DNA from: a virus
Lineage: Duplodnaviria; Caudoviricetes
Strand: one strand, 5' to 3'
IMG/VR virus record: IMGVR_UViG_2974637922_000001
Span: 32,001 to 96,000 of that record
DNA: 64,000 nucleotides
The notes beneath the pieces are model-generated. The model saw only the letters and a program-made list of their open reading frames with translations. It did not search any database and was not told the DNA's origin. Shown piece after piece: positions 269-21,009 of the stretch. Made by a program: the position numbers and the translations under genes. Position 1 is the stretch's first letter. Each line of letters begins with the position of its first letter.

Positions 269-515
269 ACTATATACTACAGACAATTATTCAGGTACAA
301 TGAACCTAACTGAACATCAAAAGATTCAACTCTCACAATTTATTCATGAGTCGTTCTCTACATTCTATGAGGAGGAACTAAAGTTTCAAGTAGAAACTCT
401 AAAAGATGATGATAAGTTGGATTGGACTTATACAATCACACCAAGAGACTCAGGGGAGATTTATGATAAGGTTCAGGAATTATTCACACTGGAAAGGCGT
501 GTGACAGTAGAATAA
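240..515 (+). CDS. Hypothetical protein (true start probably 258 or 300)
   Basis: ORF track; stop lies inside dyad R1 (..VTVE*). Confidence 0.65.
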   Translation: MSLLYPMLSKLYTTDNYSGTMNLTEHQKIQLSQFIHESFSTFYEEELKFQVETLKDDDKLDWTYTITPRDSGEIYDKVQELFTLERRVTVE

Positions 516-581
516 GTGACACAAGGGGGGTTGGCAAACCCCCTTTTTGCTGCCATAATATACTCATACACACAAAGACCC
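500..581 (+). promoter_or_regulatory. Repeat R1: dyad + promoter with terminator-like hairpin
   Basis: TGTGACAGTAGAATAAGTGACACA; TTGGCA-N17-CATAAT; GGGGGTT-GGCA-AACCCCC-TTTTT. Confidence 0.9.
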
Positions 582-710
582 ATGAACGTCCCCAACTGGC
601 AGAAGCACTCCAAGAAAGACCAGAAGGGTCGCGGAGTGAGCAAGGGTCAGATGAGAGCCCGCAAACAGGCTCTACGTGCCCTGAAGGCAAAGCTCCTTGT
701 GACAGTCTAG
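582..710 (+). CDS. Small basic protein, 42 aa (MNVPNWQKHSKK..)
   Basis: ATG at the standard position after R1; stop inside R2. Confidence 0.75.
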   Translation: MNVPNWQKHSKKDQKGRGVSKGQMRARKQALRALKAKLLVTV

Positions 711-780
711 GAAGTGGCACAAGCCCCCTAGGCAAACCACCCCACACCTGCTATACTAAACACATACAAAGGAAACCACC
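698..780 (+). promoter_or_regulatory. Repeat R2
   Basis: TGTGACAGTCTAGGAAGTGGCACA; TAGGCA-N17-TATACT; AAAGGA SD. Confidence 0.9.
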
Positions 781-1191
781 ATGGCTCGTCACTCTGAAGT
801 TCTCATCCAAGGCACTGAAGTTCCCGGTCTTCGTATGATCGTAACCGTTCCAGTCGATCACACCTGGGCATCAGAAACCGCCGAGAGCATCTATGGATTT
901 GGTGGCAACACCCAATATATCTGGCGGAAGTCTTGGGAGACTAACCAACCCGCCCCCCGTGGTGGTGGTTCCTCCTCCTCTGGCATGGGTCCTGGAGCTA
1001 TCCTGATGGGGATGATTGGTCTTATCCTGGTTGCTGGTATTGGTTCCGCCTTCGAGGGTAACGACACCCCCTCAGCTCCTTCCTATGACGCTCCCGCACC
1101 TGTTGAGAGGTCATACGTTCCACAGGCACCCGCATCAACATCCTCCTACGATAACGGTCCTTGCCTCACAGCTAACTTTGAACCTTGTTAA
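781..1191 (+). CDS. Hypothetical protein with one TM helix and Pro/Ser-rich tail
   Basis: Follows R2 with SD; hydrophobic stretch AILMGMIGLILVAGIG. Confidence 0.75.
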   Translation: MARHSEVLIQGTEVPGLRMIVTVPVDHTWASETAESIYGFGGNTQYIWRKSWETNQPAPRGGGSSSSGMGPGAILMGMIGLILVAGIGSAFEGNDTPSAPSYDAPAPVERSYVPQAPASTSSYDNGPCLTANFEPC

Positions 1192-1192
1192 T

Positions 1193-1366
1193 ATGAAAGA
1201 CTTTCGTCCCCCACATCACACCACTACTAAAGAAGAGTGGGAGTTTATTTTCCAAACACAGATACATAACTGCGCCCAACTAAAGAACACAGAACTCCAA
1301 CGTTTTGTGTGTGTAGATAGTATGGGCAACAAAACTACCAAATACGTTATCGAATACAATGACTGA
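1193..1366 (+). CDS. Hypothetical protein, 57 aa (MKDFRPP..)
   Basis: ATG 1 nt after the previous stop; in frame with track ORF 1016..1366. Confidence 0.65.
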   Translation: MKDFRPPHHTTTKEEWEFIFQTQIHNCAQLKNTELQRFVCVDSMGNKTTKYVIEYND

Positions 1367-1649
1367 AAAAGAAGTAGAGCTACACTTTGGGAGTGAGTAT
1401 GAGGCTGGCATTGACTATGGGGATAGTGATGATTCAGACATTTTAGACTACACCAAAGAAGTAAGTGTCACACTAACCCGTTCAGATTGGAATTGGTTTG
1501 TTACACTGATGTCAGACTCCGTTAATAAGATGGAGGCTGCAGTTTCTGCACAAGGTATGGATGCTGAGTCCTTCCTTTCTATTGATGTTCTTCGCACTAT
1601 TCGTAATGAAATCGCAACTCAGAGTGGACTCACTCAATATATTGATTGA
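1359..1649 (+). CDS. Hypothetical acidic protein
   Basis: ORF track; overlapping operon packing. Confidence 0.7.
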   Translation: MTEKEVELHFGSEYEAGIDYGDSDDSDILDYTKEVSVTLTRSDWNWFVTLMSDSVNKMEAAVSAQGMDAESFLSIDVLRTIRNEIATQSGLTQYID

Positions 1650-1650
1650 G

Positions 1651-1923: not shown

Positions 1924-1958
1924 ATATATGTTATAATATCATAACATATATCACGAAT

Positions 1959-3179: not shown

Positions 3180-3197
3180 CCTAATTGAGGATTTTGA

Positions 3198-3678: not shown

Positions 3679-3874
3679 AGAAGATCTAATGATCAACTGG
3701 AAACAGAAGATGATGAAACATTGCACCCACGATTGGGAAAAGCAACTATTACGTGAAGGTGCCACATCATCTGTGACAGCAATGGGTATAATGTCACTAA
3801 AGAAACGATACAAAAAGATTATGGGTATTGATGATGATCCAAAGCCACCTGTAGTTCAGTATGCTTCATATTGA
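3668..3874 (+). CDS. Hypothetical protein
   Basis: ORF track; stop inside R3. Confidence 0.7.
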   Translation: MMTEEDLMINWKQKMMKHCTHDWEKQLLREGATSSVTAMGIMSLKKRYKKIMGIDDDPKPPVVQYASY

Positions 3875-3954
3875 CACTTGAATAACTGGCACAAGGGGGG
3901 TAGGCACCCCCCTTTTTTGTGCCATAATACAGAGGTAAACAACGGGAACCACCC
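3870..3954 (+). promoter_or_regulatory. Repeat R3 with terminator-like hairpin
   Basis: ATTGACACTTGAATAACTGGCACA; GGGGGGT-AGGC-ACCCCCC-TTTTTT; TGCCATAAT. Confidence 0.85.
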
Positions 3955-4332
3955 ATGCAACTACCTACCCCCCTGCTAAACAGAGGTTACACTATAAACG
4001 GCAATACTGCCAGTAGGGTATATCAGCACGGTTTTAGAGTAGAGTTAGAGGCACTAACTACCCTAAACATGCCCATAGGTTTACTAAACTATATTATAAA
4101 CGAAAACGATATAGAGTGCCCCTGGGCACCAGCAGATGTAGAGCAGTTTGATACTATCTGGCACTATACTGTTACAGATATTAGAGGTGAGATACTAGAT
4201 AATACATATGGTTTTACAACCTATTATATGTTTGACTCTATTAGAGAGATACATAACGCACTAACAGATATTACAGTAGATAATGCGTTAGATATTATGA
4301 ATGGCACATCTGAACTATATGCCACCTGCTAA
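3955..4332 (+). CDS. Hypothetical lysine-free protein with skewed k-mer content
   Basis: Single-gene cassette between R3 and R4. Confidence 0.8.
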   Translation: MQLPTPLLNRGYTINGNTASRVYQHGFRVELEALTTLNMPIGLLNYIINENDIECPWAPADVEQFDTIWHYTVTDIRGEILDNTYGFTTYYMFDSIREIHNALTDITVDNALDIMNGTSELYATC

Positions 4333-4399
4333 ACTGGCACAGGGGGGCTAGGCACAGCCCCCTACACCTGCTATACTAAACACATACCAAACCAATACT
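4318..4399 (+). promoter_or_regulatory. Repeat R4
   Basis: TATGCCACCTGCTAAACTGGCACA; TAGGCA...TGCTATACT. Confidence 0.85.
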
Positions 4400-4576
4400 A
4401 TGTTTGAATTGATGTTATTGGCGGGGGTGGCATTCACACCTCTCCAAGGATCAGAAACTATCAATCAATTTTGTTCTGAAGTTGTTGGTATCCCATACGC
4501 CAGTGATAACTTCACTGATGAAGAATGGGAACGTTTTACTTATTGTCGCGAATCTATCAAGGTACCTCAAAAATGA
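4400..4576 (+). CDS. Small protein, 58 aa (MFELMLLAGV..IPYASDNFTDEEWERF..)
   Basis: Hand-translated; ATG at the standard position after R4; ATGA overlap with next gene. Confidence 0.75.
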   Translation: MFELMLLAGVAFTPLQGSETINQFCSEVVGIPYASDNFTDEEWERFTYCRESIKVPQK

Positions 4577-4857: not shown

Positions 4858-4858
4858 T

Positions 4859-5068: not shown

Positions 5069-5181
5069 CACCCGAAGAATTTGAAGAGAACGCAAGAATT
5101 ATCACGGGTGACCCAACATGGTCCCTAGATGATGATGTGACAGTTGAGGAAGTGGCACACACTTCCCCGCAAACACCCTGA
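5065..5181 (+). CDS. Small ORF, 38 aa, reading through dyad R5
   Basis: Hand-translated MTPEEFEENARIITGDPTWSLDDDVTVEEVAHTSPQTP; ATGA-coupled. Confidence 0.45.
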   Translation: MTPEEFEENARIITGDPTWSLDDDVTVEEVAHTSPQTP

Positions 5182-5254
5182 AACCTGTTATCTTATAGGA
5201 GTGGGAGAGATACACCCCCCACACCAAACAAACCCCCTACAACCCCTTCTAAGT
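5136..5254 (+). promoter_or_regulatory. Repeat R5 (divergent -10, long leader)
   Basis: TGTGACAGTTGAGGAAGTGGCACA; TGTTATCTT at the -10 position. Confidence 0.8.
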
Positions 5255-5605
5255 ATGAATCTCAAGGCACTGGCACTCACTTCCGTTCTCGCCGTTGGTG
5301 GCATCTTTGGATCAGTTGCACCAGCATCAGCTGGCACCTGTTGGTTTGAAAACTACAGTGGTAGTTTGTCTCCAACATATTGTTCCACATATGTTAGGAC
5401 TAACGCTAACGGACACAGGGTTGTGGATGTTGTTGACTATGAAGGAACCGCAATGACGTTGGTATTCTGGACTGATAGTTCAGTTGAGATTCTCTACACT
5501 AACGGGCAATACAATGGTAACCGAGTTGTGGCAACTTGGTACTTCGATGATGATGGTGACCGTCGCATCTACGTTGGTGACTTTGAAATGAGTCTCCGAG
5601 TTTGA
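5255..5605 (+). CDS. Predicted exported protein (signal peptide MNLKALALTSVLAVGG..APASA)
   Basis: Start after R5 leader; n/h/c signal peptide with AxA. Confidence 0.8.
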   Translation: MNLKALALTSVLAVGGIFGSVAPASAGTCWFENYSGSLSPTYCSTYVRTNANGHRVVDVVDYEGTAMTLVFWTDSSVEILYTNGQYNGNRVVATWYFDDDGDRRIYVGDFEMSLRV

Positions 5606-5612: not shown

Positions 5613-5637
5613 GGAGGGTTTATAACCCTCCTTTTTT
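5613..5637 (+). terminator. Intrinsic terminator
   Basis: GGAGGGTT-TAT-AACCCTCC-TTTTTT. Confidence 0.85.
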
Positions 5638-5645
5638 ATGCCATG

Positions 5646-5674
5646 TTGCCATTGTAGTTGATATGTGTTATAAT
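5646..5674 (+). promoter_or_regulatory. sigma70-type promoter without dyad
   Basis: TTGCCA-N17-TATAAT with extended TG. Confidence 0.7.
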
Positions 5675-5699: not shown

Positions 5700-5966
5700 A
5701 TGAAACGCAAAGCAACCAGGAACTTCGACCTTAGAATAAGGTTAGACGGCAACAAGTGGAAGGTAGTTCAGTTAGAAGAAGGTAAGATTATTACCCCAGC
5801 TAAGTTGAAAGAACTGAACGATAGACAGATAAGAGATTATACAGAAGAAGTTAAAGAGGTTGACTTAAGTTTTCTATCACCAGAAGATAAGCGTTACTAC
5901 CGTAAACATAAGTCTAATCCAGATATGGATTGGGCTCTAGATATTCTCTCCTACCCCCCCAACTAA
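5700..5966 (+). CDS. Hypothetical basic protein (MKRKATRNF..)
   Basis: In frame with track ORF 5658..5966; ATG after promoter. Confidence 0.7.
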   Translation: MKRKATRNFDLRIRLDGNKWKVVQLEEGKIITPAKLKELNDRQIRDYTEEVKEVDLSFLSPEDKRYYRKHKSNPDMDWALDILSYPPN

Positions 5967-6146: not shown

Positions 6147-6292
6147 TTTTCCATAACGGGGATGGCAGGGACTACCTACCGTCCCTTTTTTATGAAAATA
6201 TGGATTTTTACGAGTTTGGGTCTAGTGCCTGACTGGGTTCTCAGGGAGCAACAAACCCCATATCACCCTGATACCACCCCCCTACACAAAAC
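6147..6292 (+). repeat. Second repeat family, copy A (multi-block non-coding element)
   Basis: Blocks TTTTCCATA, GGCA, CCTACC, ATATGG, GTCTAGTG, TCTCAG, ACAAA, TCACCC, ATACCACCCC, CAAAAC are colinear with 15378-15524 at offset 9231-9232. Confidence 0.8.
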
Positions 6293-6302
6293 CACAAACT
6301 AT

Positions 6303-6408
6303 TGTGCCAGTTGGACTAGTGGCACAACCCCCCTAGGCAAGACCTCCCCTATCGTGTATTGTATAGAAGTGGAGGGGAAACCCACCACACAAACCACTAA
6401 CTAACCAA
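6303..6408 (+). promoter_or_regulatory. Repeat R6
   Basis: TGTGCCAGTTGGACTAGTGGCACA; TAGGCA; divergent -10. Confidence 0.8.
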
Positions 6409-6591
6409 ATGAACCGCATCCAACTCAACAAAGAACTCACACAACTTCGCGAAGAACGTGAAAAAGCACAACGTGAAGTTGATAACATCCAAGGATGTAT
6501 GAATGAGTTAATGAGGAAGCGAAATGAGTTGGATATGGAACAAGAAGAGCGTTCAGGTCAGATGTTATTCGACCAGATGTTCGGAGGTTGA
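6409..6591 (+). CDS. Small coiled-coil protein (..LFDQMFGG)
   Basis: Follows R6. Confidence 0.75.
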   Translation: MNRIQLNKELTQLREEREKAQREVDNIQGCMNELMRKRNELDMEQEERSGQMLFDQMFGG

Positions 6592-6620: not shown

Positions 6621-6866
6621 ATGAACACAACAACAATCAACATTCTCAAATCACTGGACATTCTTTCCACTTTGATTCAAGCATTCTATGAGATTGGATA
6701 TGAACTTGGCACCTTCTATCGCGACCATCTCCATTCACATGTAAAGTTTGCTATTGAATACTCTGGTCTCGTTATTCGTGAGACCTATAGTAACCGCCAA
6801 GAGTATTTCACAAAACTGAATAACCTTCGCAACCAAGCTGGTTCATACTTTGTCTATAGCGTGTGA
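6621..6866 (+). CDS. Hypothetical protein
   Basis: ORF track; stop GTG-TGA formed by dyad R7. Confidence 0.7.
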   Translation: MNTTTINILKSLDILSTLIQAFYEIGYELGTFYRDHLHSHVKFAIEYSGLVIRETYSNRQEYFTKLNNLRNQAGSYFVYSV

Positions 6867-6946
6867 CAGTTGGGGAAGTGGCACAAGCCCCCTAGGCAAA
6901 CCCCTCAGGGGGTGCTATACTATATTCATACCAAAGGGAACCACCC
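6862..6946 (+). promoter_or_regulatory. Repeat R7
   Basis: TGTGACAGTTGGGGAAGTGGCACA; TAGGCA...TGCTATACT. Confidence 0.9.
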
Positions 6947-7189
6947 ATGACTCATCTTTCCTTCACTCAGACCACACAAAACGCACTCCGTGAGTTAGAT
7001 CGTTTAGAGGGAATTAAAGTTAGACTCGCTGGTCTGATTGTTGATCTTAAAGAGACACCATCAGCTAACTCTGAAACTTGGGTCAGGATGTATACTGACC
7101 GCCTCGTTTCTAATGTTATCCCAGCCATCAAGGAAGTTAAAGAATATCTCACTAGTCAGGATGCACTAGTTACCAAAGCATCCAACTGA
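6947..7189 (+). CDS. Hypothetical protein
   Basis: Cassette R7-R8. Confidence 0.75.
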   Translation: MTHLSFTQTTQNALRELDRLEGIKVRLAGLIVDLKETPSANSETWVRMYTDRLVSNVIPAIKEVKEYLTSQDALVTKASN

Positions 7190-7266
7190 GATACTGGCAC
7201 AAGGGGGGTTGGCAAGACCCCTCAAAACCCCTATACTAAACACATACCAAACAAAGGGAACAACCC
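7178..7266 (+). promoter_or_regulatory. Repeat R8 (left arm degenerate)
   Basis: ...ACTGGCACA; TTGGCA...TATACT. Confidence 0.85.
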
Positions 7267-7518
7267 ATGGCTCAACAAATCAAAATGAGAACACGAGTTT
7301 ATTCTGATGTGACAGTAAGAGATCCACAGAGATATTATGATAGCGTGTTTCAGGGTTATAATGAGTATTGGACACTATTAGAATCAGATGATCCAAAGTG
7401 TATCTTAGTTGAGACTACAGCACAATATGATCTTAACCTGGAAGGACTGAGTTCCTTATATGATATGATCACACCTGAAATGTATCAGTCAACATACAGA
7501 ACTTATATTGAAGTCTAA
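7267..7518 (+). CDS. Hypothetical protein
   Basis: Cassette R8-R9. Confidence 0.75.
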   Translation: MAQQIKMRTRVYSDVTVRDPQRYYDSVFQGYNEYWTLLESDDPKCILVETTAQYDLNLEGLSSLYDMITPEMYQSTYRTYIEV

Positions 7519-7520
7519 GA

Positions 7521-7603
7521 TGTGACAGTTGGGGAAGTGGCACACGCTTCCCCACAAACCACTCCATACCTGCTATACTAAACACATACCAAAGGAAACC
7601 AAC
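7521..7603 (+). promoter_or_regulatory. Repeat R9
   Basis: TGTGACAGTTGGGGAAGTGGCACA; TGCTATACT. Confidence 0.9.
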
Positions 7604-7801
7604 ATGGTTATCGACACTGAAAACTATTTCACCACTGACAACGATCTTCTTCAGACAGTATCACAATTCATTCTCTCACTGAATAATAAATTGATCAGTC
7701 AGAATGTGAACTTTATGGAGTCTATTGGCGTTGATACTTTGACTGACTTCAACCAACAACTCATCCTTGAATGTGAAGAATACAAGTGTTATGATGTATA
7801 A
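7604..7801 (+). CDS. Hypothetical acidic protein (MVIDTENY..)
   Basis: ATG after R9 leader; in frame with track ORF 7529..7801. Confidence 0.7.
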   Translation: MVIDTENYFTTDNDLLQTVSQFILSLNNKLISQNVNFMESIGVDTLTDFNQQLILECEEYKCYDV

Positions 7802-7938: not shown

Positions 7939-7961
7939 CACTCAACCTCAACTATTTCACC

Positions 7962-8471: not shown

Positions 8472-8568
8472 TTAAGTTACATCTCTGACCTCCTCAGTTT
8501 ATACTGACGACTAAACCAACTGAGAGCGCTGGTCCCCTCTCACAACTCACCTTATCTAACTATCTACT

Positions 8569-9105: not shown

Positions 9106-9353
9106 ACAACCCTTTCGCCTCACTAACTACCGAAGAGTTTATCTCTCTATCTGATGCATGTGCTCTCTCTGAACAAATGTGGAGGGAGCGCTCCCGTTCT
9201 ATAAAAGCAGGGGAGCCACGTTGGTTTTTAGATGGCGAACCTATGTTTACTGAGGAGGAATGTCGCTCAGAGATGAAACGATATCGTGAGTTACAGAAAC
9301 GAGTTTCCTGGTTCACCCTCACACCAGAGGAGAGGGAGGGTGTGCCAGTCTAA
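9102..9353 (+). CDS. Hypothetical protein
   Basis: ATGA-coupled; stop inside R10. Confidence 0.7.
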   Translation: MNNPFASLTTEEFISLSDACALSEQMWRERSRSIKAGEPRWFLDGEPMFTEEECRSEMKRYRELQKRVSWFTLTPEEREGVPV

Positions 9354-9422
9354 GAAGTGGCACAACCCCCCTAGACAAACCCCTCCTTTTCTGCTATACT
9401 ATTCACATACAGACAAAACACT
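9341..9422 (+). promoter_or_regulatory. Repeat R10
   Basis: TGTGCCAGTCTAAGAAGTGGCACA; TAGACA-N17-TATACT. Confidence 0.9.
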
Positions 9423-10328
9423 ATGGCTAAGAATCTCCACCTAGAACACCCAGAAGACCAGCTCCTCACTGGTGACGATAGTGTCATCAGTTGGTTCTAT
9501 GCAACCTCTAGTTCCTCTGTGAAGATGGATGGGGCTCCTGCTATTGTATGGGGAACTAACCCTGAAAATGGTGAGTTCTTTGTTGGAACTAAGTCAGTGT
9601 TTAACAAGAAGAAGATCAAGATATGTTATACTCAGAAGGATATTACAACACTATATGGCCATCAACCTAATGTGGTTGCTATCCTCACTGCCTGTTTGGC
9701 ATACCTCCCCCGCACTGATGTAGTGTATCAGGGTGACTTTATTGGCTTTGGTGGTGATGATACTTACACCCCAAATACTGTCACCTATGTGTTCCCTGAG
9801 GTTGTTGAGGAACGTGTTATCATGGCACCCCATACTTTCTATGTGGGTGAGAAGATGACTGAGATGGATGCCTTCCCTATCTTATCCACTCTAGATGAAT
9901 CACGTCACGTTCACTTTGTTCAACCTACCGTGGATATCTACAACAATAAGGCAAACTGGGAAGAGTTTCAGCGTTGTTATGATGAAGTGAAAGAGGTAGA
10001 TGGTTTCCTAGGTATCAAGAGAGCCGCAGAGGCAAAGATCATCATCAACCAGTTACTCCGTAACAACAAGTATCTTAGTATTCCACTATTGACTGAGATC
10101 TTTGGTACTAAAGAGATGGCTATTCTGTACACCTTCGCACTACATGAGAAGTTCAGAATCCTTGAGGATGCTATCTACTACGATGGTCCCCAGTGTTTGT
10201 TAGATGGTGATGATGTAGAGGCTGAGGGTATTGTTAGAACCAATCAGTTTGGTTCTATGAAACTCGTCAATCGTTACATCTTCAGTGTAGCAAACTTCAA
10301 CAACAGTAAGTTCAGAGAGGTTAAGTAA
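9423..10328 (+). CDS. ATP-dependent ligase-superfamily (RNA-ligase-like) nucleotidyltransferase domain protein
   Basis: Motif I KMDG, motif III-like YQGDF, motif IV EGIV, motif V MKLV; N-terminal HLEHPED recalled from cyanophage proteins. Confidence 0.65.
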   Translation: MAKNLHLEHPEDQLLTGDDSVISWFYATSSSSVKMDGAPAIVWGTNPENGEFFVGTKSVFNKKKIKICYTQKDITTLYGHQPNVVAILTACLAYLPRTDVVYQGDFIGFGGDDTYTPNTVTYVFPEVVEERVIMAPHTFYVGEKMTEMDAFPILSTLDESRHVHFVQPTVDIYNNKANWEEFQRCYDEVKEVDGFLGIKRAAEAKIIINQLLRNNKYLSIPLLTEIFGTKEMAILYTFALHEKFRILEDAIYYDGPQCLLDGDDVEAEGIVRTNQFGSMKLVNRYIFSVANFNNSKFREVK

Positions 10329-10522
10329 TGATTGACTTCGATACTCTAACCCACGAAGAACTAGAGAGACTATCTGATGACTGTGAAGACTTTCTTCTTC
10401 ATAGAAATATACCTCTAAGGTCACATTCCTATGAGAATATCATCAGACATGCTATCTTGGAAGGATACCAACTCTCTCGGTATCCTGGTGTGACACCTGG
10501 GAAACTGGCACAAGACCCCTAG
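10328..10522 (+). CDS. Hypothetical protein
   Basis: TAATG-coupled; reads through dyad R11. Confidence 0.7.
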   Translation: MIDFDTLTHEELERLSDDCEDFLLHRNIPLRSHSYENIIRHAILEGYQLSRYPGVTPGKLAQDP

Positions 10523-10572
10523 ACAAACCAGACCACACCTGCTATACTATATTCATACCAAACAAACAACCC
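10489..10572 (+). promoter_or_regulatory. Repeat R11
   Basis: TGTGACACCTGGGAAACTGGCACA; TAGACA...TGCTATACT. Confidence 0.9.
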
Positions 10573-10830
10573 ATGCAACTCACAGCACAACACGCAAACA
10601 TCGTTGTTGATTTCTACCCTGTCAAGTACTCTGATGGCACTATCAGTGAGCGTCTAATGTATAAAACAGTGAAGTTCGTTGGTTCACCTGCATCTAAGTC
10701 ATATATCAACAAAGAATCCTTTGAAAAGGAAGTTGATTCTCGTGTGTATGGTTTTGGTTATGAGGTAACTGATCTACATACAGAGCCACAACTCTTCAAC
10801 TCTGCACTTGTTCAAACTCGCTGGTCATAA
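10573..10830 (+). CDS. Hypothetical protein (MQLT..VVDFYPVK..PQLFNS)
   Basis: Follows R11. Confidence 0.75.
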   Translation: MQLTAQHANIVVDFYPVKYSDGTISERLMYKTVKFVGSPASKSYINKESFEKEVDSRVYGFGYEVTDLHTEPQLFNSALVQTRWS

Positions 10831-12476: not shown

Positions 12477-12686
12477 ATGTCTTCACCATCAGCATTCACA
12501 CCAGCATTAGGTCTAGAAGTTGAATACAGGGGCTTTGTGGGTTATATCAAGTTTATAGATGAAGAATATTTAACAGTGTGTGTGAAGAAGAAAGAGCACC
12601 AAATGTTTGGTGATGTTTGTATGGTTGTGTATCCAAGTCAGTGGGAACACATTAAACTAATGGGCGGACCTCACAGAGACCGCTAG
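12477..12686 (+). CDS. Hypothetical small beta-rich protein (GLEVEYRGFVGYIKFI..)
   Basis: ORF track; stop inside R12. Confidence 0.7.
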   Translation: MSSPSAFTPALGLEVEYRGFVGYIKFIDEEYLTVCVKKKEHQMFGDVCMVVYPSQWEHIKLMGGPHRDR

Positions 12687-12770
12687 GACAGTTGGAGAAG
12701 TGTCACAAGGGGGGTTCGCAACCCTCCTTTTTTATGCTATACTATATTCATACCAAAGGGAACCACCCCC
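12684..12770 (+). promoter_or_regulatory. Repeat R12 with terminator-like hairpin
   Basis: TAGGACAGTTGGAGAAGTGTCACA; GGGGGGTT-CGC-AACCCTCC-TTTTTT; TGCTATACT. Confidence 0.85.
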
Positions 12771-12917
12771 ATGACTATCAACTTCAAAAGTCTATTCATC
12801 ACCACTTGTGTGGGTCTCACCCTAATACTAGGGAGCTTCGCTTTTACCAGTGATTATGGTACTGAGACCGGGCGTGGCGAACAGACTGAGAGCCCTTACT
12901 ACGGACCCGCTTTCTAA
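12771..12917 (+). CDS. Small membrane/exported peptide, 48 aa
   Basis: Hand-translated; cassette R12-R13. Confidence 0.7.
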   Translation: MTINFKSLFITTCVGLTLILGSFAFTSDYGTETGRGEQTESPYYGPAF

Positions 12918-12985
12918 AGTGGCACAAGGGGGGTTGGCAAGACCCTCTACACCTGCTATACTAAACACATACCAAACAAGGAACC
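12903..12985 (+). promoter_or_regulatory. Repeat R13 (left arm degenerate)
   Basis: ...AAGTGGCACA; TTGGCA...TGCTATACT. Confidence 0.85.
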
Positions 12986-13162
12986 ATGTTCAAACTTCAA
13001 CTTAAGTGGCAGAAAGGAGGTGAGTGGATTGATACAGTATACGCTCCTACAGAATACGCAACAGCTTTCTTTCGTTGGAGACAGTACCAAGAGCTTTGGG
13101 GTGATACTCACACCTATCGCCTCCTCGATGTGACACCTCAGGAAGTGGCACAAGCCTCCTAG
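12986..13162 (+). CDS. Small Trp-rich protein, 58 aa (MFKLQLKWQKGGEW..)
   Basis: Hand-translated; cassette R13-R14, reads through dyad. Confidence 0.7.
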   Translation: MFKLQLKWQKGGEWIDTVYAPTEYATAFFRWRQYQELWGDTHTYRLLDVTPQEVAQAS

Positions 13163-13211
13163 GCAAACCACCCCACACCTGCTATACTAAACACATACCA
13201 AACAAAGAACC
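13129..13211 (+). promoter_or_regulatory. Repeat R14
   Basis: TGTGACACCTCAGGAAGTGGCACA; promoter part nearly identical to R2. Confidence 0.9.
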
Positions 13212-13493
13212 ATGAATTTCAAGTCCTTCCTTCTCTCCTCTCTCATCGTTACCACTGGGCTAGTAGCTTCAGCACCAGGAGCCAAAGCCGCTGAATGTTT
13301 CAATGGTGATGGATATCGGGTTTGTATGGAGAGCTTAGGCATGAATCGTTGGGAAGTATCCTTTGAGAACAATCACGGATCAGAGTTTATGGAGGTTCAG
13401 TGTATTGGCAAGAGTGTGAGTGATTGGACCTCACGGGGTGATTTGAGTCAGTCTGAAGCACAGTATCTCGCAGAGGAATTCTGTTCCTGGTAA
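13212..13493 (+). CDS. Predicted exported 4-Cys protein, paralog of 16458..16775
   Basis: Signal peptide ..APGAKA; four Cys. Confidence 0.8.
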   Translation: MNFKSFLLSSLIVTTGLVASAPGAKAAECFNGDGYRVCMESLGMNRWEVSFENNHGSEFMEVQCIGKSVSDWTSRGDLSQSEAQYLAEEFCSW

Positions 13494-13526: not shown

Positions 13527-13682
13527 ATGTTTGTATCCTTCACTGAAATCCAAGACTACATTCGCGAAGATCAATACACATATAGTGAGCGCCAGTTCCG
13601 CTCACGCAAGTATAAAAAGAACGAACGTCGTTACCAACGTCGCCAGAAACAACAACAAAGAGACCGCACCTACGACGTGTGA
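13527..13682 (+). CDS. Small Arg/Gln-rich protein, 51 aa
   Basis: Hand-translated MFVSFTEIQDYIRED..; stop GTG-TGA in R15. Confidence 0.65.
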   Translation: MFVSFTEIQDYIREDQYTYSERQFRSRKYKKNERRYQRRQKQQQRDRTYDV

Positions 13683-13761
13683 CAGTTGGAGAAGTGGCAC
13701 ACGCTTCTCCGCAAACCCCTAAGGGGGTGCTATACTATATTCATACCAAAGGGAACCACCC
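13678..13761 (+). promoter_or_regulatory. Repeat R15
   Basis: TGTGACAGTTGGAGAAGTGGCACA; TCCGCA-N17-TATACT. Confidence 0.9.
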
Positions 13762-13986
13762 ATGACCACCACCACTCCAAACCTCTACAACGAAGCTATC
13801 CGTCGTTTGGCTGACGGGTTCTCCTCAGAGTTCGCTGAGTTCTGTGCAGGAGACGAGAGGGTTCACGAGATCATGATGGAACTCGCTAGTGAGTTCGTAG
13901 AAACTAATATCCCTGTAGTGAGTGAGGACAGCCAGACTGACGTGGCATCTGAGCTCCTCATGAGTATCACAGTCACCAAGGTGTGA
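13762..13986 (+). CDS. Hypothetical acidic protein
   Basis: Cassette R15-R16. Confidence 0.75.
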   Translation: MTTTTPNLYNEAIRRLADGFSSEFAEFCAGDERVHEIMMELASEFVETNIPVVSEDSQTDVASELLMSITVTKV

Positions 13987-14066
13987 CAGTCTAGGAACTG
14001 GCACAAGGGGGGTTGGCAACACCCCCCAAACCCCTTATAATAAACACATACCAAACAACCCAGACC
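13982..14066 (+). promoter_or_regulatory. Repeat R16
   Basis: TGTGACAGTCTAGGAACTGGCACA; TTGGCA...TATAAT. Confidence 0.9.
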
Positions 14067-14615
14067 ATGAACTTCAAGAAACTCTTCCTTTCCGCCCTCG
14101 CACTTGGTTCAGTTGTAGCCCCTTCAGCAAACGCTGGTTATACCTATGAGGGTTATCACTTGATGGATGGTTCTGACTTTCCTGGTTATGAGAGAGTGGC
14201 AACCCCAATGATTCAGGCTCTCAATGAAATGGGTGTTCCTGTTGTTGATGGTGGTAAGAATAACGTAGAAATGTGTATTCCTGAAGAGGAAAAGATGACT
14301 CTTGGTTTCTACGTTCCAGCATCCAATGTGATGGTTATCTGTACCAAGTCTATCCCAGGTTGGCTCCAGATGGAGACACTTACCCACGAAACAGTTCATG
14401 TCATCCAAGACGCACGGGCTGGTATTGATAACGGAGATTTGGGAGAGGCACCAACCGATCACCTTATCACCCTCGCTAATGAGATGGATCCCGATAAGAT
14501 GAATATCATCTACAGCCTCTACGATGAGTCTGATTACGCAGTAGAGATTGAAGCTTTCTACTTTGAAACAGAACCCCAGGTGGTTATGAATGAGATCCAG
14601 AAGTGGGCATTCTGA
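14067..14615 (+). CDS. Predicted exported zinc metallopeptidase-like protein
   Basis: Signal peptide ..APSANA; HExxH (THETVHVIQ) and downstream EIEAF. Confidence 0.75.
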   Translation: MNFKKLFLSALALGSVVAPSANAGYTYEGYHLMDGSDFPGYERVATPMIQALNEMGVPVVDGGKNNVEMCIPEEEKMTLGFYVPASNVMVICTKSIPGWLQMETLTHETVHVIQDARAGIDNGDLGEAPTDHLITLANEMDPDKMNIIYSLYDESDYAVEIEAFYFETEPQVVMNEIQKWAF

Positions 14616-15377: not shown

Positions 15378-15524
15378 TTTTCCATATTCCTGTCGGCAAC
15401 CACCTCCTACCATACCCCCTGCCAAACCGATATGGTTTTTTCACCTTTCCCGTCTAGTGGCTCACTGGTGTCTCAGCGAGGCACAAATGAGATTTCACCC
15501 CCATACCACCCCTCTGACCAAAAC
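15378..15524 (+). repeat. Second repeat family, copy B
   Basis: Colinear blocks with 6147-6292. Confidence 0.8.
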
Positions 15525-15529
15525 GGATC

Positions 15530-15841
15530 ATGAAACGCTACGGACTTTATTGGCTGAGAGCTATCACCCTGGGAGCTGGTTTGAACTTTGTTTTGACTGG
15601 TTACCTTATGGGTCACCAAAAGTGGAAGTTTCAACATGCAGCTCCACTCTCAGCGTTTATCTGTGTGAATCTATCGTATGTGGCAGATCGTCTTATCTTT
15701 GGCGATAAGAAGGAACCTGAAGATTTAGATCCAGATACTATTGTTATATCAACCCCACACTGTTGCCCCGTATGTTCAGAGTATCCTTGCACTTGTGACA
15801 GTTGGGAAAGTGGCACAACCCCCCTAGGCAACACCCTCTGA
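15530..15841 (+). CDS. Two-TM protein with C-terminal Cys cluster (CCPVCSEYPCTC)
   Basis: ORF track; reads through R17. Confidence 0.65.
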   Translation: MKRYGLYWLRAITLGAGLNFVLTGYLMGHQKWKFQHAAPLSAFICVNLSYVADRLIFGDKKEPEDLDPDTIVISTPHCCPVCSEYPCTCDSWESGTTPLGNTL

Positions 15842-15877
15842 ACCTGCTATACTAAACACATACCAAAGGAACCAACC
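15794..15877 (+). promoter_or_regulatory. Repeat R17
   Basis: TGTGACAGTTGGGAAAGTGGCACA; TAGGCA...TGCTATACT. Confidence 0.9.
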
Positions 15878-16075
15878 ATGAAAGTCTCTCAGGAAGTTTT
15901 CAAGAGTTACATTCAGATACTGGATGAAAACACACAAACATCATGGGATATCCTAAATGTTTTGAATGATATTGTTAGAGGTGACTGGGATAACTCAGTC
16001 CAGTATTGTTTGGAAAATCCATCAGGCGACCCTATGGATGATTTCAACTACGCAGGCAGTCGCCACCACTATTGA
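15878..16075 (+). CDS. Hypothetical protein (..DDFNYAGSRHHY)
   Basis: Follows R17. Confidence 0.75.
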   Translation: MKVSQEVFKSYIQILDENTQTSWDILNVLNDIVRGDWDNSVQYCLENPSGDPMDDFNYAGSRHHY

Positions 16076-16104: not shown

Positions 16105-16389
16105 ATGACACGCACTCCAATCACAGTTACCCTCAAGCGTAGCGAATGGGAATGTTATACAGACACTCCTGATACTATCATCGAAACCATCAACACATAC
16201 TTCTCTTATGTGTTATCAACTAAAGATAACGCATTTGATGCACAAGCTGAGATATTTAAGTTTCTGAATATGTTTAGTGAGTTTGGGTTTATGGATAGTG
16301 AGTGCCTAGAATGTGCAACTAGAGTTATCAATCGTTACTTTGATTCATATCTTTCCCGCTGGAGTCAGGTGGGTGATGTGACAGTCTAG
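16105..16389 (+). CDS. Hypothetical protein (MTRTPITV..)
   Basis: In frame with track ORF 16072..16389; stop inside R18. Confidence 0.7.
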   Translation: MTRTPITVTLKRSEWECYTDTPDTIIETINTYFSYVLSTKDNAFDAQAEIFKFLNMFSEFGFMDSECLECATRVINRYFDSYLSRWSQVGDVTV

Positions 16390-16457
16390 GAACTGGCACA
16401 CGCTTCTCCGCAAACCCCTCAGGGGGTGCTATACTATATTCATACCAAAGGAACCAA
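16377..16457 (+). promoter_or_regulatory. Repeat R18
   Basis: TGTGACAGTCTAGGAACTGGCACA; TCCGCA...TGCTATACT. Confidence 0.9.
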
Positions 16458-16775
16458 ATGAATTTCAGAACACTAGCACTCACCACCACCCTGGCTCTCT
16501 CCACTGTCCTAGGTGGTTTGGCTCCTGAAGCTAAGTCAGCTGACTTTTGTGACAACATCCCCGGCAACTCGGGATACGTTTGTGTTACCATGGGTCTCTG
16601 GTTCGACTTGGTTGAGGCAGACATACCCGCCTTTGGTGGTAAAGAGTCATTACACATCACCTGTGACGGTGGCTGGTCCTACCGTTCGAATGGCAACTGG
16701 AACAAAGACGCCGCTTCCCTTGTGGCTAAGGAGTACTGTGAAGGTGCTGGCTGGAACAGCCACTCCGAGGTGTGA
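16458..16775 (+). CDS. Predicted exported 4-Cys protein, paralog of 13212..13493
   Basis: Signal peptide; cassette R18-R19. Confidence 0.8.
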   Translation: MNFRTLALTTTLALSTVLGGLAPEAKSADFCDNIPGNSGYVCVTMGLWFDLVEADIPAFGGKESLHITCDGGWSYRSNGNWNKDAASLVAKEYCEGAGWNSHSEV

Positions 16776-16854
16776 CAGTTGAGGAAGTGGCACACGCTTC
16801 CCCCAAAACCCCTCAGGGGGTGCTATACTATATTCATACCAAACAAGGAAACCA
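16771..16854 (+). promoter_or_regulatory. Repeat R19
   Basis: TGTGACAGTTGAGGAAGTGGCACA; TGCTATACT. Confidence 0.9.
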
Positions 16855-17121
16855 ATGTTCCCACACCTCCACATCTCTGAATCAAACCTCGGACCTCACA
16901 CCTCCATGTTTTTCAAAGTATCATCACAACCACAAGATGAGTGGCAGAATGGCATTTTCCATAACTCACCTTATGGTATCTTCCACCTTCATTCTGAGAA
17001 AGGTGTTTATAAGTTGGAACTATCTTCCTCAGGTTTGAATACACCTAAGTTCAGAAAGTGTAAGTGTGAAGATGAACTTACCGCACTCACTAAGATTCGT
17101 CAGTGGATGGATAAGTTCTGA
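16855..17121 (+). CDS. Hypothetical protein (EWQNGIFHNSPY..KFRKCK)
   Basis: Follows R19. Confidence 0.75.
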   Translation: MFPHLHISESNLGPHTSMFFKVSSQPQDEWQNGIFHNSPYGIFHLHSEKGVYKLELSSSGLNTPKFRKCKCEDELTALTKIRQWMDKF

Positions 17122-17156: not shown

Positions 17157-17330
17157 ATGAACCGACTAGAACTACTGACCCAACGTGAACAACTGATGGA
17201 GAGGATTGACTCTATCTGTGATGAATTCTTTTATAAGAACTATAATGGAGATACGTCAGAAGCAGATGAATTAGTTCGTATTCTATGTGATGCTGTTTGT
17301 GAAACCATAGACCCAGCGGGTATGGTGTGA
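17157..17330 (+). CDS. Small protein, 57 aa (MNRLELLTQREQLME..LCDAVC)
   Basis: Hand-translated; stop GTG-TGA in R20. Confidence 0.7.
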   Translation: MNRLELLTQREQLMERIDSICDEFFYKNYNGDTSEADELVRILCDAVCETIDPAGMV

Positions 17331-17409
17331 CAGTTGGACTAGTGGCACACGCTTCTCCGCAAACCCCTCCTCACCTGCTATACTATATTCATACCAAAGG
17401 AAACCGACC
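17326..17409 (+). promoter_or_regulatory. Repeat R20
   Basis: TGTGACAGTTGGACTAGTGGCACA; TCCGCA...TGCTATACT. Confidence 0.9.
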
Positions 17410-17673
17410 ATGTTCCAAGTCTGTATTGAAGATTCACTAGATCACCGTCATACAGTTGATGAGTTTGAGACTCTGGAAGAAGCACAAGAGTGTTATAACG
17501 AGTGTTTGAAGATTGGTCCTGAGGGTTATGAACTCTCTGTTGAGTTAGAGCAAGTTATTGGCGACCATGATGATTATATTTCAATTGATTTCACCGAGTG
17601 GTTTACACAAGAGGAGTGGGATGTGGCTCATCCATGGAATGAGAAGGAAGGAGTATGGGAAAACATAGACTGA
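17410..17673 (+). CDS. Very acidic small protein
   Basis: Cassette R20-R21. Confidence 0.75.
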   Translation: MFQVCIEDSLDHRHTVDEFETLEEAQECYNECLKIGPEGYELSVELEQVIGDHDDYISIDFTEWFTQEEWDVAHPWNEKEGVWENID

Positions 17674-17759
17674 TGTGACAGTTGGAGAAGTGGCACACGC
17701 TTCTCCGCAAGACCCGCCTCACCTGCTATACTATTCACATACCAAACAAAGGAAACCAA
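17674..17759 (+). promoter_or_regulatory. Repeat R21
   Basis: TGTGACAGTTGGAGAAGTGGCACA; TCCGCA...TGCTATACT. Confidence 0.9.
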
Positions 17760-18101
17760 ATGACCACCACCCAAACCAAAACCGAGTTCCTCACCGAGGC
17801 AATGATCGAACAGGTGAACAACCTCTGGAAGGTTTATAACGTGGAGTCAGGTCACACCATCACCCCACTCCTTAAGTATGAAGTGGCTAAGAAGTATATC
17901 AAGGTCTATCGTCTTGATGTTGTCAATGGTGAGATTCGTGACGGTCGTTCTGTGTTTATGTTTATCGATAAGGAGACTGGAGCAGTTCTGAAACCAGCCA
18001 GTTGGAGAGCACCCGCTAAGGGTATCCGGTTCTACATTGAGTCGTTGGCAGAGAACCCTGAGCTGGTTGATCAATACGGTTCATTCCTCTACCGTCGCTG
18101 A
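17760..18101 (+). CDS. Phage hypothetical protein (FIDKETGAVLKPASWRAPAKGIRF)
   Basis: Cassette R21-R22; motif recalled from phage hypotheticals. Confidence 0.8.
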   Translation: MTTTQTKTEFLTEAMIEQVNNLWKVYNVESGHTITPLLKYEVAKKYIKVYRLDVVNGEIRDGRSVFMFIDKETGAVLKPASWRAPAKGIRFYIESLAENPELVDQYGSFLYRR

Positions 18102-18183
18102 TGTGACAGCCACCAAGGTGGCACAGGGGGGCTAGGCAGCTCCCCTTCTTTATGCTATACTATATTCATACCAAAGGAACCCG
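18102..18183 (+). promoter_or_regulatory. Repeat R22 with hairpin
   Basis: TGTGACAGCCACCAAGGTGGCACA; GGGGGGCT-AGGC-AGCTCCCC-TTCTTT; TGCTATACT. Confidence 0.9.
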
Positions 18184-19437
18184 ATGACCCTGACTCTCCG
18201 CCCCCACCAACTAGAAGCACTTCAGGTGATGGCTGAGACCCGTCTTGGCCAGATATTAGTTCCAACCGGTGGTGGTAAGACCCTTATCGCTATCATGGAC
18301 GTTGTGAGGACTCTAGAGAACGCAGGAACCCCTCAGACTATCGTTGTGGTAGCTCCCCGTATCCTTCTAGCTCAGCAACTCTGTAGTGAGTATATGGAGG
18401 TTCTGAGCGACCAGTTCGCCAACGTTATCCCCGCCCATATTCACTCAGGTCATACACCTCACTTTTCTACCACTAACATTCAGAAGATCCATCTTTTCGA
18501 GAAGATGATGGATACCGCCAACCTCCACCGCATATATTTCACCACATACAACTCACTTCCACGTTTAGCAGAAGCAGGTGTAAGTGTAGATACTATTATG
18601 TTTGATGAGGCACATAACTCTACTCGTAATGACTTCTATCCCGCTACCAAGTATTTCTCACAGACCGCTAGTCGTTGTTACTACTTTACAGCAACTCCCC
18701 GCCACTCTGTAACATCCAAGAGACACGGAATGAACGAGTCTGATGTATACGGACAGGTTATCTACAATGTTCCCGCTCCTACACTTGTACAAGGTGGTTT
18801 CATCATCCCCCCACAGGTTCTTGTTAAAGAAATGGAGTTCGTAGCTAAACACGAGCTCATCTCACAACGTGACACAAACCACCTCATCTCTTGTATTGAT
18901 GACAACAACACGAGCAAAGTTCTAGTTTGTGCTAAGTCTGTCAAACAGATCATGCGTATGTTTAGTGAGACCGATATCAGCCAACAACTTGATGATCGTG
19001 GTTTCTCCTATATGTACATCTCAGCTAAGACTGGTGGTGTTATCAATGGTAAGAAAGTATCACGTACTATGTTCTTCGATACTCTAAACGAGTGGGGTAA
19101 GGATAACGACAAGAAGTTCATTGTACTTCATCATTCTATTCTCAGTGAAGGTATCAACGTGAGTGGTTTGGAGTCAGCTATCTTCTTACGTACCATGGAT
19201 CATATTACTATCTCCCAAACGATTGGACGTGTGATAAGACTTCACAAAGATGATGCTCAAGGTATGAGAGAGGGTACGATTCGCCCCGGTGATCTTAACT
19301 CCTACACTAAGTCGTTTGGTTTGTGTATTGTTCCAGTTTATTCTAAGACACAACAAACCGTTGCTAAGTCTCTTCAAGCAGTTGTCAATACCGTCTTTGT
19401 TGAAGGTGAAGCAGCAACCACAGTTGTGAGGCGTTAG
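18184..19437 (+). CDS. SF2 DEAH-box helicase (ResIII-like)
   Basis: Q-motif LRPHQ, Walker A PTGGGKT, DEAH, TATP, SEGIN, QTIGRVIR. Confidence 0.9.
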   Translation: MTLTLRPHQLEALQVMAETRLGQILVPTGGGKTLIAIMDVVRTLENAGTPQTIVVVAPRILLAQQLCSEYMEVLSDQFANVIPAHIHSGHTPHFSTTNIQKIHLFEKMMDTANLHRIYFTTYNSLPRLAEAGVSVDTIMFDEAHNSTRNDFYPATKYFSQTASRCYYFTATPRHSVTSKRHGMNESDVYGQVIYNVPAPTLVQGGFIIPPQVLVKEMEFVAKHELISQRDTNHLISCIDDNNTSKVLVCAKSVKQIMRMFSETDISQQLDDRGFSYMYISAKTGGVINGKKVSRTMFFDTLNEWGKDNDKKFIVLHHSILSEGINVSGLESAIFLRTMDHITISQTIGRVIRLHKDDAQGMREGTIRPGDLNSYTKSFGLCIVPVYSKTQQTVAKSLQAVVNTVFVEGEAATTVVRR

Positions 19438-19545
19438 TATGAATTATCAAAACCAAGCTCTTGTGATACTTCTAGGTCTAATGTTCATAGCTGGTATTAA
19501 CGTACTTCACTACGAACAACAATGGCAATGTAGGATGCATCAAAC

Positions 19546-20256
19546 CTATTGTTTTGTTTCTGAATAATACCATAGGTAACCCTTCCAACGCGAACCCCAT
19601 TTGATTGAAGTACAAATACCCTTCCCACGATCCTCCTCGTTAAAGGATCTCATCGCAGCACTAATAGAGTCAAACACGGGTGTAACATGACCGCTCTTAT
19701 GAACTCCATAGACTTGTTTCTTATTCTTAGCGTGTTTATGAATCCACCATTTATGACCATATGCAGTGCCCTCTCGATCTATACTACGACGGATACTTGA
19801 TGGAATTCCGTTTACATATTCAGCGGCAGCAACCCAACCATGAAAGGTCTTTATCTTACCCGTTTCAAGGTTACGACATTTGATCACGTTCTTATCATGT
19901 TTCTTAGGTTTCTTCTTCCGTTGATAACCCCAACGCCTATCCCCTTTATGATATGACTCTTTATTATTCAGCTTCTTAGTCTTATGCTCCATCACTAAAA
20001 CGTTGTACTCAGGGTTATACTTATTCATCCAATATTCCACTCGTTCAGTAACCTTATTCTCATTCACTTCTTCTAGTATGCGTATAGTGAAGTCATCGGA
20101 GTTATAGTAACCCAACGCATTCGACAGAGGAGTATTTTCCTCCTTATGATTCTTAAGGATATTAGACCAAACTTTATTCAGGGGAAGCGTATCATAACCA
20201 ATGTATTTGTGAGAGGTTTGTCTATTCAAGATGATGTAGATGTTTGTGATACTCAC
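19546..20256 (-). CDS. GIY-YIG-like domain plus two NUMOD1-like DNA-binding repeats; catalytic residues look substituted
   Basis: NIYII..KYIG, F.IRILE, EYN; C-terminal F.GW..AA..TAYGHKW and FDSISAAM..WKGYLW repeats. Confidence 0.7.
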   Translation of the reverse strand: MSITNIYIILNRQTSHKYIGYDTLPLNKVWSNILKNHKEENTPLSNALGYYNSDDFTIRILEEVNENKVTERVEYWMNKYNPEYNVLVMEHKTKKLNNKESYHKGDRRWGYQRKKKPKKHDKNVIKCRNLETGKIKTFHGWVAAAEYVNGIPSSIRRSIDREGTAYGHKWWIHKHAKNKKQVYGVHKSGHVTPVFDSISAAMRSFNEEDRGKGICTSIKWGSRWKGYLWYYSETKQ

Positions 20257-20340
20257 GCCAGATACTCTCTATTCTGATTGTATATATAAACATTATCTTT
20301 TTTTATCACATATCGTTCATCATCTCCCTATTGAATGTTA

Positions 20341-20456
20341 TAATAGAAAGGAAGAGATAAACGTATATAACCAACGTAATCACCTAAGGAAAGGTTATCT
20401 AATAGAAGGAACTAATCAATACATTAACCAACGTAATCATATAGGGGAAGGTGAAT
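20341..20456 (+). repeat. Two imperfect ~57-bp tandem repeats in non-coding DNA
   Basis: TAACCAACGTAATCA at 20368 and 20425; each unit starts TAATAGAA and ends ..AAGGT. Confidence 0.75.
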
Positions 20457-20666
20457 AGAAAGCCCTATAGAAAGAACCCCTTATTCAATACAATCCCCAA
20501 GGTAATAACCAATAAGATAGTATCATATAACGAGGTCTTTAGGTTGCTCTAAGTCTCTCCTAAACTCCACTGCCCGTTGCAACCTAAGCCCGTTATAACA
20601 CGGGACTTCGGAAAAGTCAAGGGATCTCCGAAAAACTTAATATTTCTCCCCTCCCCCCTGGACTCC

Positions 20667-20753
20667 TGTGCCAATTCCCAAACTGGCACACGGAAACCCC
20701 AAAACCCCTCCCAGTACCCTATACTATATTCATACAAACAAAGGGAACACCCC
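20667..20753 (+). promoter_or_regulatory. Repeat R23
   Basis: TGTGCCAATTCCCAAACTGGCACA; TATACT. Confidence 0.85.
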
Positions 20754-20912
20754 ATGACCAAAGCAACTCAGAGACCTTCCACCCAGAGCCGTTACACCAG
20801 TCAGGTAGCCCGGGACCGTAAGGCAGCAGCACTCCAGAGGGCTGAGGAGCGTCGCCTCACTGGCTCATGTGGAGAGGATCAGGTGAACCGCCTCTACACT
20901 GTGACACTCTGA
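20754..20912 (+). CDS. Small basic protein, 52 aa
   Basis: Cassette R23-R24; in frame with track ORF 20577..20912. Confidence 0.7.
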   Translation: MTKATQRPSTQSRYTSQVARDRKAAALQRAEERRLTGSCGEDQVNRLYTVTL

Positions 20913-21009
20913 TAACTGGCACAACCCCCCTTGACCCCACCCCCTCTATACCCTATAATATAGAGGTAGGGGGGGAAACCACTCTACACTCACTCTAAAC
21001 TCTCTAAAC
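20900..21009 (+). promoter_or_regulatory. Repeat R24
   Basis: TGTGACACTCTGATAACTGGCACA; TTGACC-N17-TATAAT. Confidence 0.9.

Follow-up and report, generated by a model that had tools for sequence, protein, structure and literature searches.

The stretch of DNA analysed here (the window) comprises 64,000 nucleotides, bases 32001-96000 of a 196,842-bp virus record (IMGVR_UViG_2974637922_000001; 86% complete), and its first part holds a long series of small genes headed, at intervals, by copies of one intergenic element of about 85-110 bp (~90 bases), in which a 24-bp dyad is followed by a promoter and a leader. The first 22 kb are ~95% identical to nine isolates of Synechococcus phage ACG-2014f (Kyanoviridae, Atlauavirus); as the one-piece match covers only 35-39% of the query, the similarity to ACG-2014f is mosaic. 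The source is a marine ACG-2014f-like (Atlauavirus) T4-type cyanomyovirus. In the ACG-2014f isolates the array region is flanked by a tail-fibre-like gene and gp25 and holds little else than small hypothetical genes, and the same region carries the dyad there too (23-27 exact copies forward and 0-2 reverse per genome). With 24 copies in 20.5 kb and three more upstream of the window (genome positions 27211, 30087 and 31191; window -4789, -1913 and -809), this is the hyperplastic region of the T4-type genome, and in the 197 kb only three solo copies, at genome positions 112077, 152453 and 167084, lie beyond the array.

The initial annotation had described 24 co-oriented copies of a 7-10-7 dyad at a fixed distance from a TGnTATACT box, followed by an AC-rich leader, a Shine-Dalgarno (SD) sequence and ATG, with each copy heading 1-11 unrelated small genes. 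A search of the window with TGTGMCAGTTNNNNAASTGGCACA, allowing up to three mismatches, returned 22 distinct full dyads at 500-20923 (chance expectation 0.02), and a scan for promoter and leader that left the dyad aside returned two extra copies, in which only the right arm precedes the same promoter and leader. The 22 full dyads and two half-dyads make up the 24 copies, all of them on the + strand. The spacing stands as well: from the end of the dyad to TGnTATA(C/A)T there are 26 nt in 11 copies and 27 nt in 12, that is, in 23 of 28 copies genome-wide, and the -10 hexamer lies 29-30 nt downstream of the dyad end. The proteins encoded in the headed units are indeed unrelated to one another; the units hold 1-10 called open reading frames (ORFs) each, slightly fewer at the upper end than first stated.

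The dyad is an asymmetric pseudo-palindrome with a left arm TGTG(A/C)CA, in which A far outnumbers C, and a right arm TGGCACA; it is the most conserved part of the element, its orientation follows transcription, and it lies at about -43 to -66 of the promoter. After seven G/C-rich nucleotides 3' of the dyad comes a -35-like hexamer (TAGGCA, TTGGCA, TAGACA or CCGCAA), then a 17-nt spacer ending in TGn, a -10 hexamer (TATACT or TATAAT), the AC-rich leader (CATACCAAA...; aaacACATACCAAA or atattCATACCAAA), a GGAA-type SD and ATG, and an independent consensus scan found the same -35/-10 pairs (TAGGCA/TTGGCA/TAGACA-17-TATACT with TG). Copies can be sorted by what follows the dyad: type A copies have a separate GGGGGG-loop-CCCCC-T(n) hairpin with the -35 in its loop, while in type C copies, which have a poor -35 (CCGCAA), the dyad spacer and right arm pair with a following CGCTTCYCC (-20.9 kcal/mol, z -3.3), and variation is matched on the two sides (GGGG/CCCC, GGAG/CTCC). 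G-run/C-run hairpins are present in most copies (types A and C), a U-tract follows the hairpin in only 5-7 copies, and three type A hairpins were scored terminator-like in the consensus scan. The promoter role first proposed agrees with this anatomy, which is that of a sigma70-type early promoter with leader and SD. We infer that the element would serve as an early promoter for the host sigma70 (SigA) and that about a quarter of the copies would double as an intrinsic terminator for the upstream unit. Sigma70-like motifs have been reported upstream of cyanomyovirus early genes, and T4-like cyanophages lack Alt, ModA/B, MotA and AsiA (PMC2984593).

A 39-kb region of this genome and its counterparts in the nine isolates were aligned all against all; collinear alignments were chained and differences of at least 60 bp were listed. 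In the window, 14 of 23 unique indel or replacement boundaries fall inside elements, where 2.2 would be expected from uniform positions and 6.0 under a null of random gene boundaries (P=0.0006), and the enrichment is similar with each of the ten genomes taken as reference (tests that are not independent of one another). Counted by gene junction, a boundary is hosted by 12 of 24 junctions with an element and by 5 of ~42 without one (odds ratio ~7, P ~0.001). A hot spot lies at 3870-4318, where the cargo has been replaced with both homology borders in dyads (3885-3895 and 4320-4332); the cargo measures 434 bp here and about 390, 3,564 or 3,847 bp in relatives, the 3.56-kb allele carrying a 691-aa and a 337-aa ORF and the 3.85-kb allele an Eco57I-like DNA methyltransferase and a ResIII/DEAD helicase. 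At three indels (elements 9, 12 and 18 in Table 1) the junction overlap, of 84, 81 and 81 bp respectively, is the whole element. Cargo has also been replaced from the ATG of the element at 16377 to the dyad of that at 16771, and further junctions lie within the elements at 6303, 17674, 18102, 20667 and 20900.

Three-way alignments reveal how such junctions are built. Where a 'long' genome has a cassette with an element on either side, a 'short' genome has one chimeric element, its left part matching one flanking copy and its right part the other. In the clean cases taken together, crossover intervals fall in the left half of the dyad, its right arm, the dyad end, the stretch from hairpin to -10, or the leader, and jointly they span element positions 0-94. 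A 621-bp cassette present in isolates C24 and C16 is particularly informative: in this genome the crossover is in the right arm of the dyad, and in US34, US4 and C25 it lies between the -35 region and the SD. Two different junctions on the same element pair indicate two independent recombination events. Furthermore, the post-dyad types A, B and C, the leader types L1, L2 and L3 and the dyad-spacer variants occur in all combinations; the elements themselves are, on this evidence, mosaic. That breakpoints between relatives would map to the dyad was therefore right insofar as they are non-random and concentrate in elements, and wrong insofar as the crossovers are spread over the element and not confined to the dyad.

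The initial annotation further held that genes are gained, lost and reordered at the element. Gain, loss and replacement do map preferentially to elements. Among the ten close genomes, by contrast, no non-collinear match longer than the element was found, so reordering is not supported at this timescale. Signs of it appear only against S-CAM7, a phage of a different genus (35-87% protein identity), which has homologues for 31 of 70 ORFs: these keep a largely collinear order (Spearman 0.60), about eight of them being displaced, including the single-gene element-headed cassettes at 6947, 13762, 17760 and 18184.

Table 1. Promoter elements of the array and the cargo of the replacement hot spot (window coordinates)
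Feature	Position	Strand	Remarks
Element 1	500..584	+	dyad 500-523; GGGGGG..CCCCC-T5 hairpin with -35; TGCCATAAT; ATG 582
Element 2	698..783	+	type B; unit of about 10 genes
Element 3	3870..3957	+	type A; terminator-like hairpin 3893-3914; left edge of replacement hot spot
Hot-spot cargo	3895..4320	+	one 125-aa ORF in this genome
Element 4	4318..4402	+	right edge of replacement hot spot; homology restarts 4320-4332
Element 5	5136..5257	+	271-bp indel ends at 5133, just 5' of dyad
Element 6	6303..6411	+	perfect arms, atypical -10; 41-bp junction overlap 6372-6412
Element 7	6862..6949	+	stop of upstream ORF is TGA of TGTGA
Element 8	7178..7269	+	half-dyad, right arm ACTGGCACA 7193-7201; promoter and leader complete
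Element 9	7521..7606	+	type C hairpin GGGGAAGTG/CGCTTCCCC; 84-bp junction overlap (7519-7602), whole element
Element 10	9341..9425	+	
Element 11	10489..10575	+	Syn9 homologue of headed gene also has upstream dyad
Element 12	12684..12773	+	chimeric; crossover in dyad right arm; 621-bp cassette absent here; 81-bp overlap 12687-12767
Element 13	12903..12988	+	half-dyad, right arm AAGTGGCACA 12917-12926, with promoter
Element 14	13129..13214	+	
Element 15	13678..13764	+	type C
Element 16	13982..14069	+	type A
Element 17	15794..15880	+	
Element 18	16377..16460	+	left edge of replaced cassette; 81-bp overlap (16376-16456) versus isolate C25
Element 19	16771..16857	+	right edge of replaced cassette; homology restarts 16767
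Element 20	17326..17412	+	
Element 21	17674..17762	+	48-bp junction overlap 17721-17768
Element 22	18102..18186	+	type A; heads helicase gene; boundaries 18105, 18153
Element 23	20667..20756	+	boundaries 20646-20756
Element 24	20900..21012	+	homology to relatives stops at dyad end (20923)

Repeated elements of a similar kind, the promoter-early stem-loop (PeSL) cassettes, have been described for the phage pairs RB49/phi1, T4/PST and KVP40/nt-1 (Arbiol 2010 PMC2839356; Comeau 2014 PMC4122927). In the PeSL scheme the stem-loop acts as a terminator on transcription from upstream, and mini-circles arise when neighbouring elements recombine. The likeness is extensive. Both are repeated, co-oriented, intergenic composite elements of a hyperplastic region, with sigma70-like -35/-10 hexamers at ~17-nt spacing (here TAGGCA/TTGGCA-17-TGnTATACT), SD and ATG at the 3' end, and a G-run/C-run stem-loop adjoining the promoter; both flank ORFs of unknown function, with indels and replacements between close relatives mapping to the elements, and both include degraded 'half' copies. 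The present element differs in its cyanobacterial host, in having no AT-rich tract 5' of the -35 but a G/C-rich one with the sequence-conserved 24-bp asymmetric dyad, in the frequent position of the -35 within the hairpin loop, and in the scarcity of the U-tract, found in only about a quarter of copies. In the cyanophage S-PM2 few PeSLs were found, and a shuffling mechanism was dismissed there (PMC4503421).

The simplest account is the PeSL model itself, that is, homologous recombination on short, dispersed, co-oriented repeats. The ~25 element copies are the only sequence common to otherwise unrelated cassettes and, as such, serve as portable homology. The general recombination machinery of the phage, including a UvsX/RecA-like protein, would cross over anywhere within the elements, and the products are deletions and insertions of a cassette with its element, cargo replacement between two elements, and mosaic elements. 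A RecA/UvsX-like recombinase gene is encoded in the genome record. We would thus read the array as homology-driven, PeSL-type modular shuffling in a cyanophage, with an added upstream dyad module, and assign this reading a probability of about three in four.

What can be said of the dyad outside this genome? The exact dyad is present in more than 118 IMG/VR contigs, and since 108 of the 118 loci fetched share proteins (30-80% identity) with this genome, these are diverse cyanomyovirus-like contigs. At the fetched loci 137 matches to the extended -10 fall at offsets 25-28, and in 122 of these the distance is again 26-27 nt, with 79 different intervening sequences; dyad orientation, as judged there from flanking coding potential, was mostly ambiguous. 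Among other phages, perfect dyads number four in S-SRM01, two in Syn9 at 48558 and 52996, two each in ACG-2014j and ACG-2014e, one in Sf-CH11 and none in S-CAM7, and an upstream dyad is kept by only 3 of 12 distant homologues of genes headed by an element. With 0-4 copies in other genera and these 3 of 12 homologues, a general early-promoter motif of all cyanomyoviruses is ruled out, and the expansion is lineage-specific. We conclude that the dyad is a module coupled to the promoter, and that it multiplied in the Atlauavirus lineage along with the element family. We found no description of it in the literature, our coverage of which did not take in the Syn9 transcription start site map (Doron 2016), which could hold one.

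A site for a host transcription factor was likewise considered and rejected as the main reading. In 185,579 prokaryotic genomes just 9 stretches contain the exact dyad, none of them from marine picocyanobacteria. A loose dyad pattern gave 1-3 matches in 92 of the 401 cyanobacterial genomes scanned, a level only modestly above that of a reversed control, though the control matched far fewer genomes; there is no signal of regulon size. Look-alikes were also set aside, as the half-site spacing of CRP, NtcA and sigma54 sites is mismatched, and cyanobacteria are not known to have sigma54.

Several observations weigh against shuffling by homology at the elements. BLAST alignment ends place the junctions only approximately; the ten genomes share history, and events from different reference genomes are not independent; about 40% of the boundaries lie outside elements; and with a U-tract in so few copies most units are not transcriptionally insulated, unlike those of classical PeSLs. 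There are also precise events away from any element of this genome: an indel of a 539-bp gene (7943-8483), an ATGA-coupled gene pair (9098-9107) where relatives have a solo element that is absent here, and an ATGA junction (15524-15533) where relatives carry an inserted cassette of element and ORF. Such element-free indels would suit the reading that this is only a promoter family, in which elements mark the starts of units that are gained and lost by illegitimate recombination and selection, the elements not being the substrate; so would the fixed gene order of the ten close genomes, and the fact that S-CAM7 shares 31 of 70 genes yet has no exact dyad. Random breakpoints together with fixed order and a lack of circles or rearranged reads were what the initial annotation had named as the mark of a promoter family; the ten close genomes do show a fixed order, and breakpoints are non-random. 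Moreover, the indel junctions are single chimeric elements with each half matching a different flanking copy, the 81-84 bp overlaps equal the element, the enrichment survives the gene-boundary null, one locus has two independent junctions, and the sub-modules occur in all combinations, all of which makes the promoter-family explanation improbable. Still more doubtful is that a dedicated enzyme acts at the dyad and moves single cassettes, by site-specific, integron-like or nuclease-guided exchange. Homology borders do lie at dyad edges (3885-3895, 4320-4332, 5133, 16767 and 20923), two copies are cut off exactly within the dyad, no part of the element is better conserved than the arms, the dyad has both an asymmetry and an orientation, and upstream ORFs adjoin or run into it. 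Co-oriented small unrelated genes between imperfect palindromes, with cassette-wise presence and absence, also recall integron arrays with their attC sites and IntI. However, the record (86% complete) contains no tyrosine or serine recombinase match (PF00589 or PF00239), each unit has its own -35/-10 in place of one shared Pc, and crossovers occur over the ~90-bp element, including its -10/leader part (element positions about 50-94), so that the early description of the array as functionally integron-like has to be given up. Conservation in the present repeats is of sequence; in attC sites it is mainly of structure. No stretch identical in all copies is longer than the dyad, so a bias towards it would be expected from homologous recombination alone, and with crossovers as scattered as these a site-specific, integron-like mechanism neither fits nor is needed.

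A separate question is what the dyad does. One answer, which we regard as unlikely, is that it is an RNA or DNA hairpin like the stem-loop of PeSLs, terminating or stabilising the upstream transcript, and not a protein-binding site. Its position, just 5' of the -35, is that of the PeSL stem-loop, and it adjoins the stop codon of the upstream gene: in 15 of the 23 copies scored, the upstream ORF ends between -4 and +14 of the dyad start, and in 7 of those 15 the stop codon is the TGA of TGTGA, so that this use may account in part for the A at position 5. The strong type C pairing with its matched variants points the same way, yet chimeric copies in which the type C hairpin is broken persist, and on its own the dyad forms only a weak fold (-5 kcal/mol, z about -1.2). 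It has conserved combinations that are not complementary, mostly A.G at positions 5/20 and mostly G.G or C.C at positions 8/17; the sequence of the arms is conserved and not just their pairing; and the 26-27 nt spacing to the -10 is fixed in 79 different sequence contexts. No Rfam family was matched in the window. The dyad is probably a protein-recognition site, with a recogniser that is not a host regulon factor, and its nearest analogue would be the stoperators of mycobacteriophages. Like the stoperators and operators of cluster A mycobacteriophages (L5 family; PMC9283540), it is an asymmetric site in more than 20 copies, found in short intergenic spaces and promoters, near gene ends and oriented according to the direction of transcription. 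A stoperator is a 13-mer to which the known monomeric immunity repressor of temperate phages binds (PMC9283540); here, by contrast, the phage is a lytic T4-like one and the site a 24-bp pseudo-palindrome that keeps a fixed distance from a promoter throughout. We tentatively entertain, as a possibility that falls short of an even chance, that the dyad is the operator of a dedicated cyanomyovirus factor, phage-encoded or delivered with the virion, which would switch all ~25 early units on or off together and so make them a stoperator-like early regulon of a lytic T4-type phage, and that it is also the preferred crossover point, letting new cargo join the regulon.

The only candidate small DNA-binding protein that we noticed is an AbrB/MazE-like protein (SpoVT-AbrB fold) encoded by a 54-aa ORF at 22302-22466 (+), with homologues in 26 cyanophage records, S-CAM7 and S-SRM01 included. 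It was rejected as the dyad binder on distribution, which does not track the dyad, S-CAM7 having the gene but no exact dyad.

Most ORFs of the array match PHROG families of unknown function, the recognisable cargo being a dCMP deaminase, a ResIII/DEAD helicase, an HNH endonuclease and several domains of unknown function. For the host-takeover or anti-defence cargo first proposed there is one candidate locus: the methyltransferase and helicase alleles found in relatives at 3870-4318 would fit DNA-modification or counter-restriction cargo, at that one locus only. The HNH endonuclease gene (19546-20256; phrog_3404; 'cox1-i7 protein' in the annotation of relatives) is the sole minus-strand gene in the array and directly follows the helicase gene (18184-19437); it is probably a free-standing homing endonuclease. 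In at least six cassettes (ORF starts 5255, 12771, 13212, 14067, 15041 and 16458) the small proteins, otherwise unrelated, begin with signal-peptide-like sequences (MNFK/MNLK...A-x-A), from which the phage is predicted to export several small early proteins. A 14-aa C-terminal stretch is common to two called ORFs, 6162-6404 and 15530-15841, solely as the result of each running through an element (6303 and 15794, respectively); the true ends or gene status of both ORFs are doubtful.

Within the array, 5613-5674 (+) holds a terminator (GGAGGGTT..AACCCTCC-T6) and a near-consensus promoter (TTGCCA-17-TGnTATAAT) with no dyad, 5' of the ORF at 5700-5966; by its make-up this is a classical PeSL-like unit. 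Two of the solo copies outside the window also deserve mention. The one at genome position 112077, which is conserved in every isolate searched, heads a 377-aa gene. At genome position 167084 the dyad occurs with TGTTATAAT and no ORF after it, the first ATG being directly followed by a stop; this copy may drive a small non-coding RNA. Downstream of the array, 21375-24140 has no dyad and shows more indels and replacements relative to relatives, with differences at 21611, 21957-22272, 23513-23862 and 24133; at 23513-23862, 348 bp with an ORF (23584-23859) are present only in this genome among the ten.

These results bear on two questions in the biology of T4-like cyanophages, the control of early transcription and the turnover of hypervariable regions. 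PeSL shuffling was already known from T4-type coliphages; what is new here is a PeSL-type cassette system in a cyanophage, together with a conserved dyad. Ten natural genomes make it possible to follow the gain, loss and replacement of cassettes back to single crossovers within a defined promoter element, which would extend the PeSL model to cyanophages, and the elements mark hot spots that hold alternative DNA-modification cargo. The comparison also exposes, in the dyad, a conserved cis-element across diverse marine cyanomyovirus contigs, for which a binding factor can now be sought.

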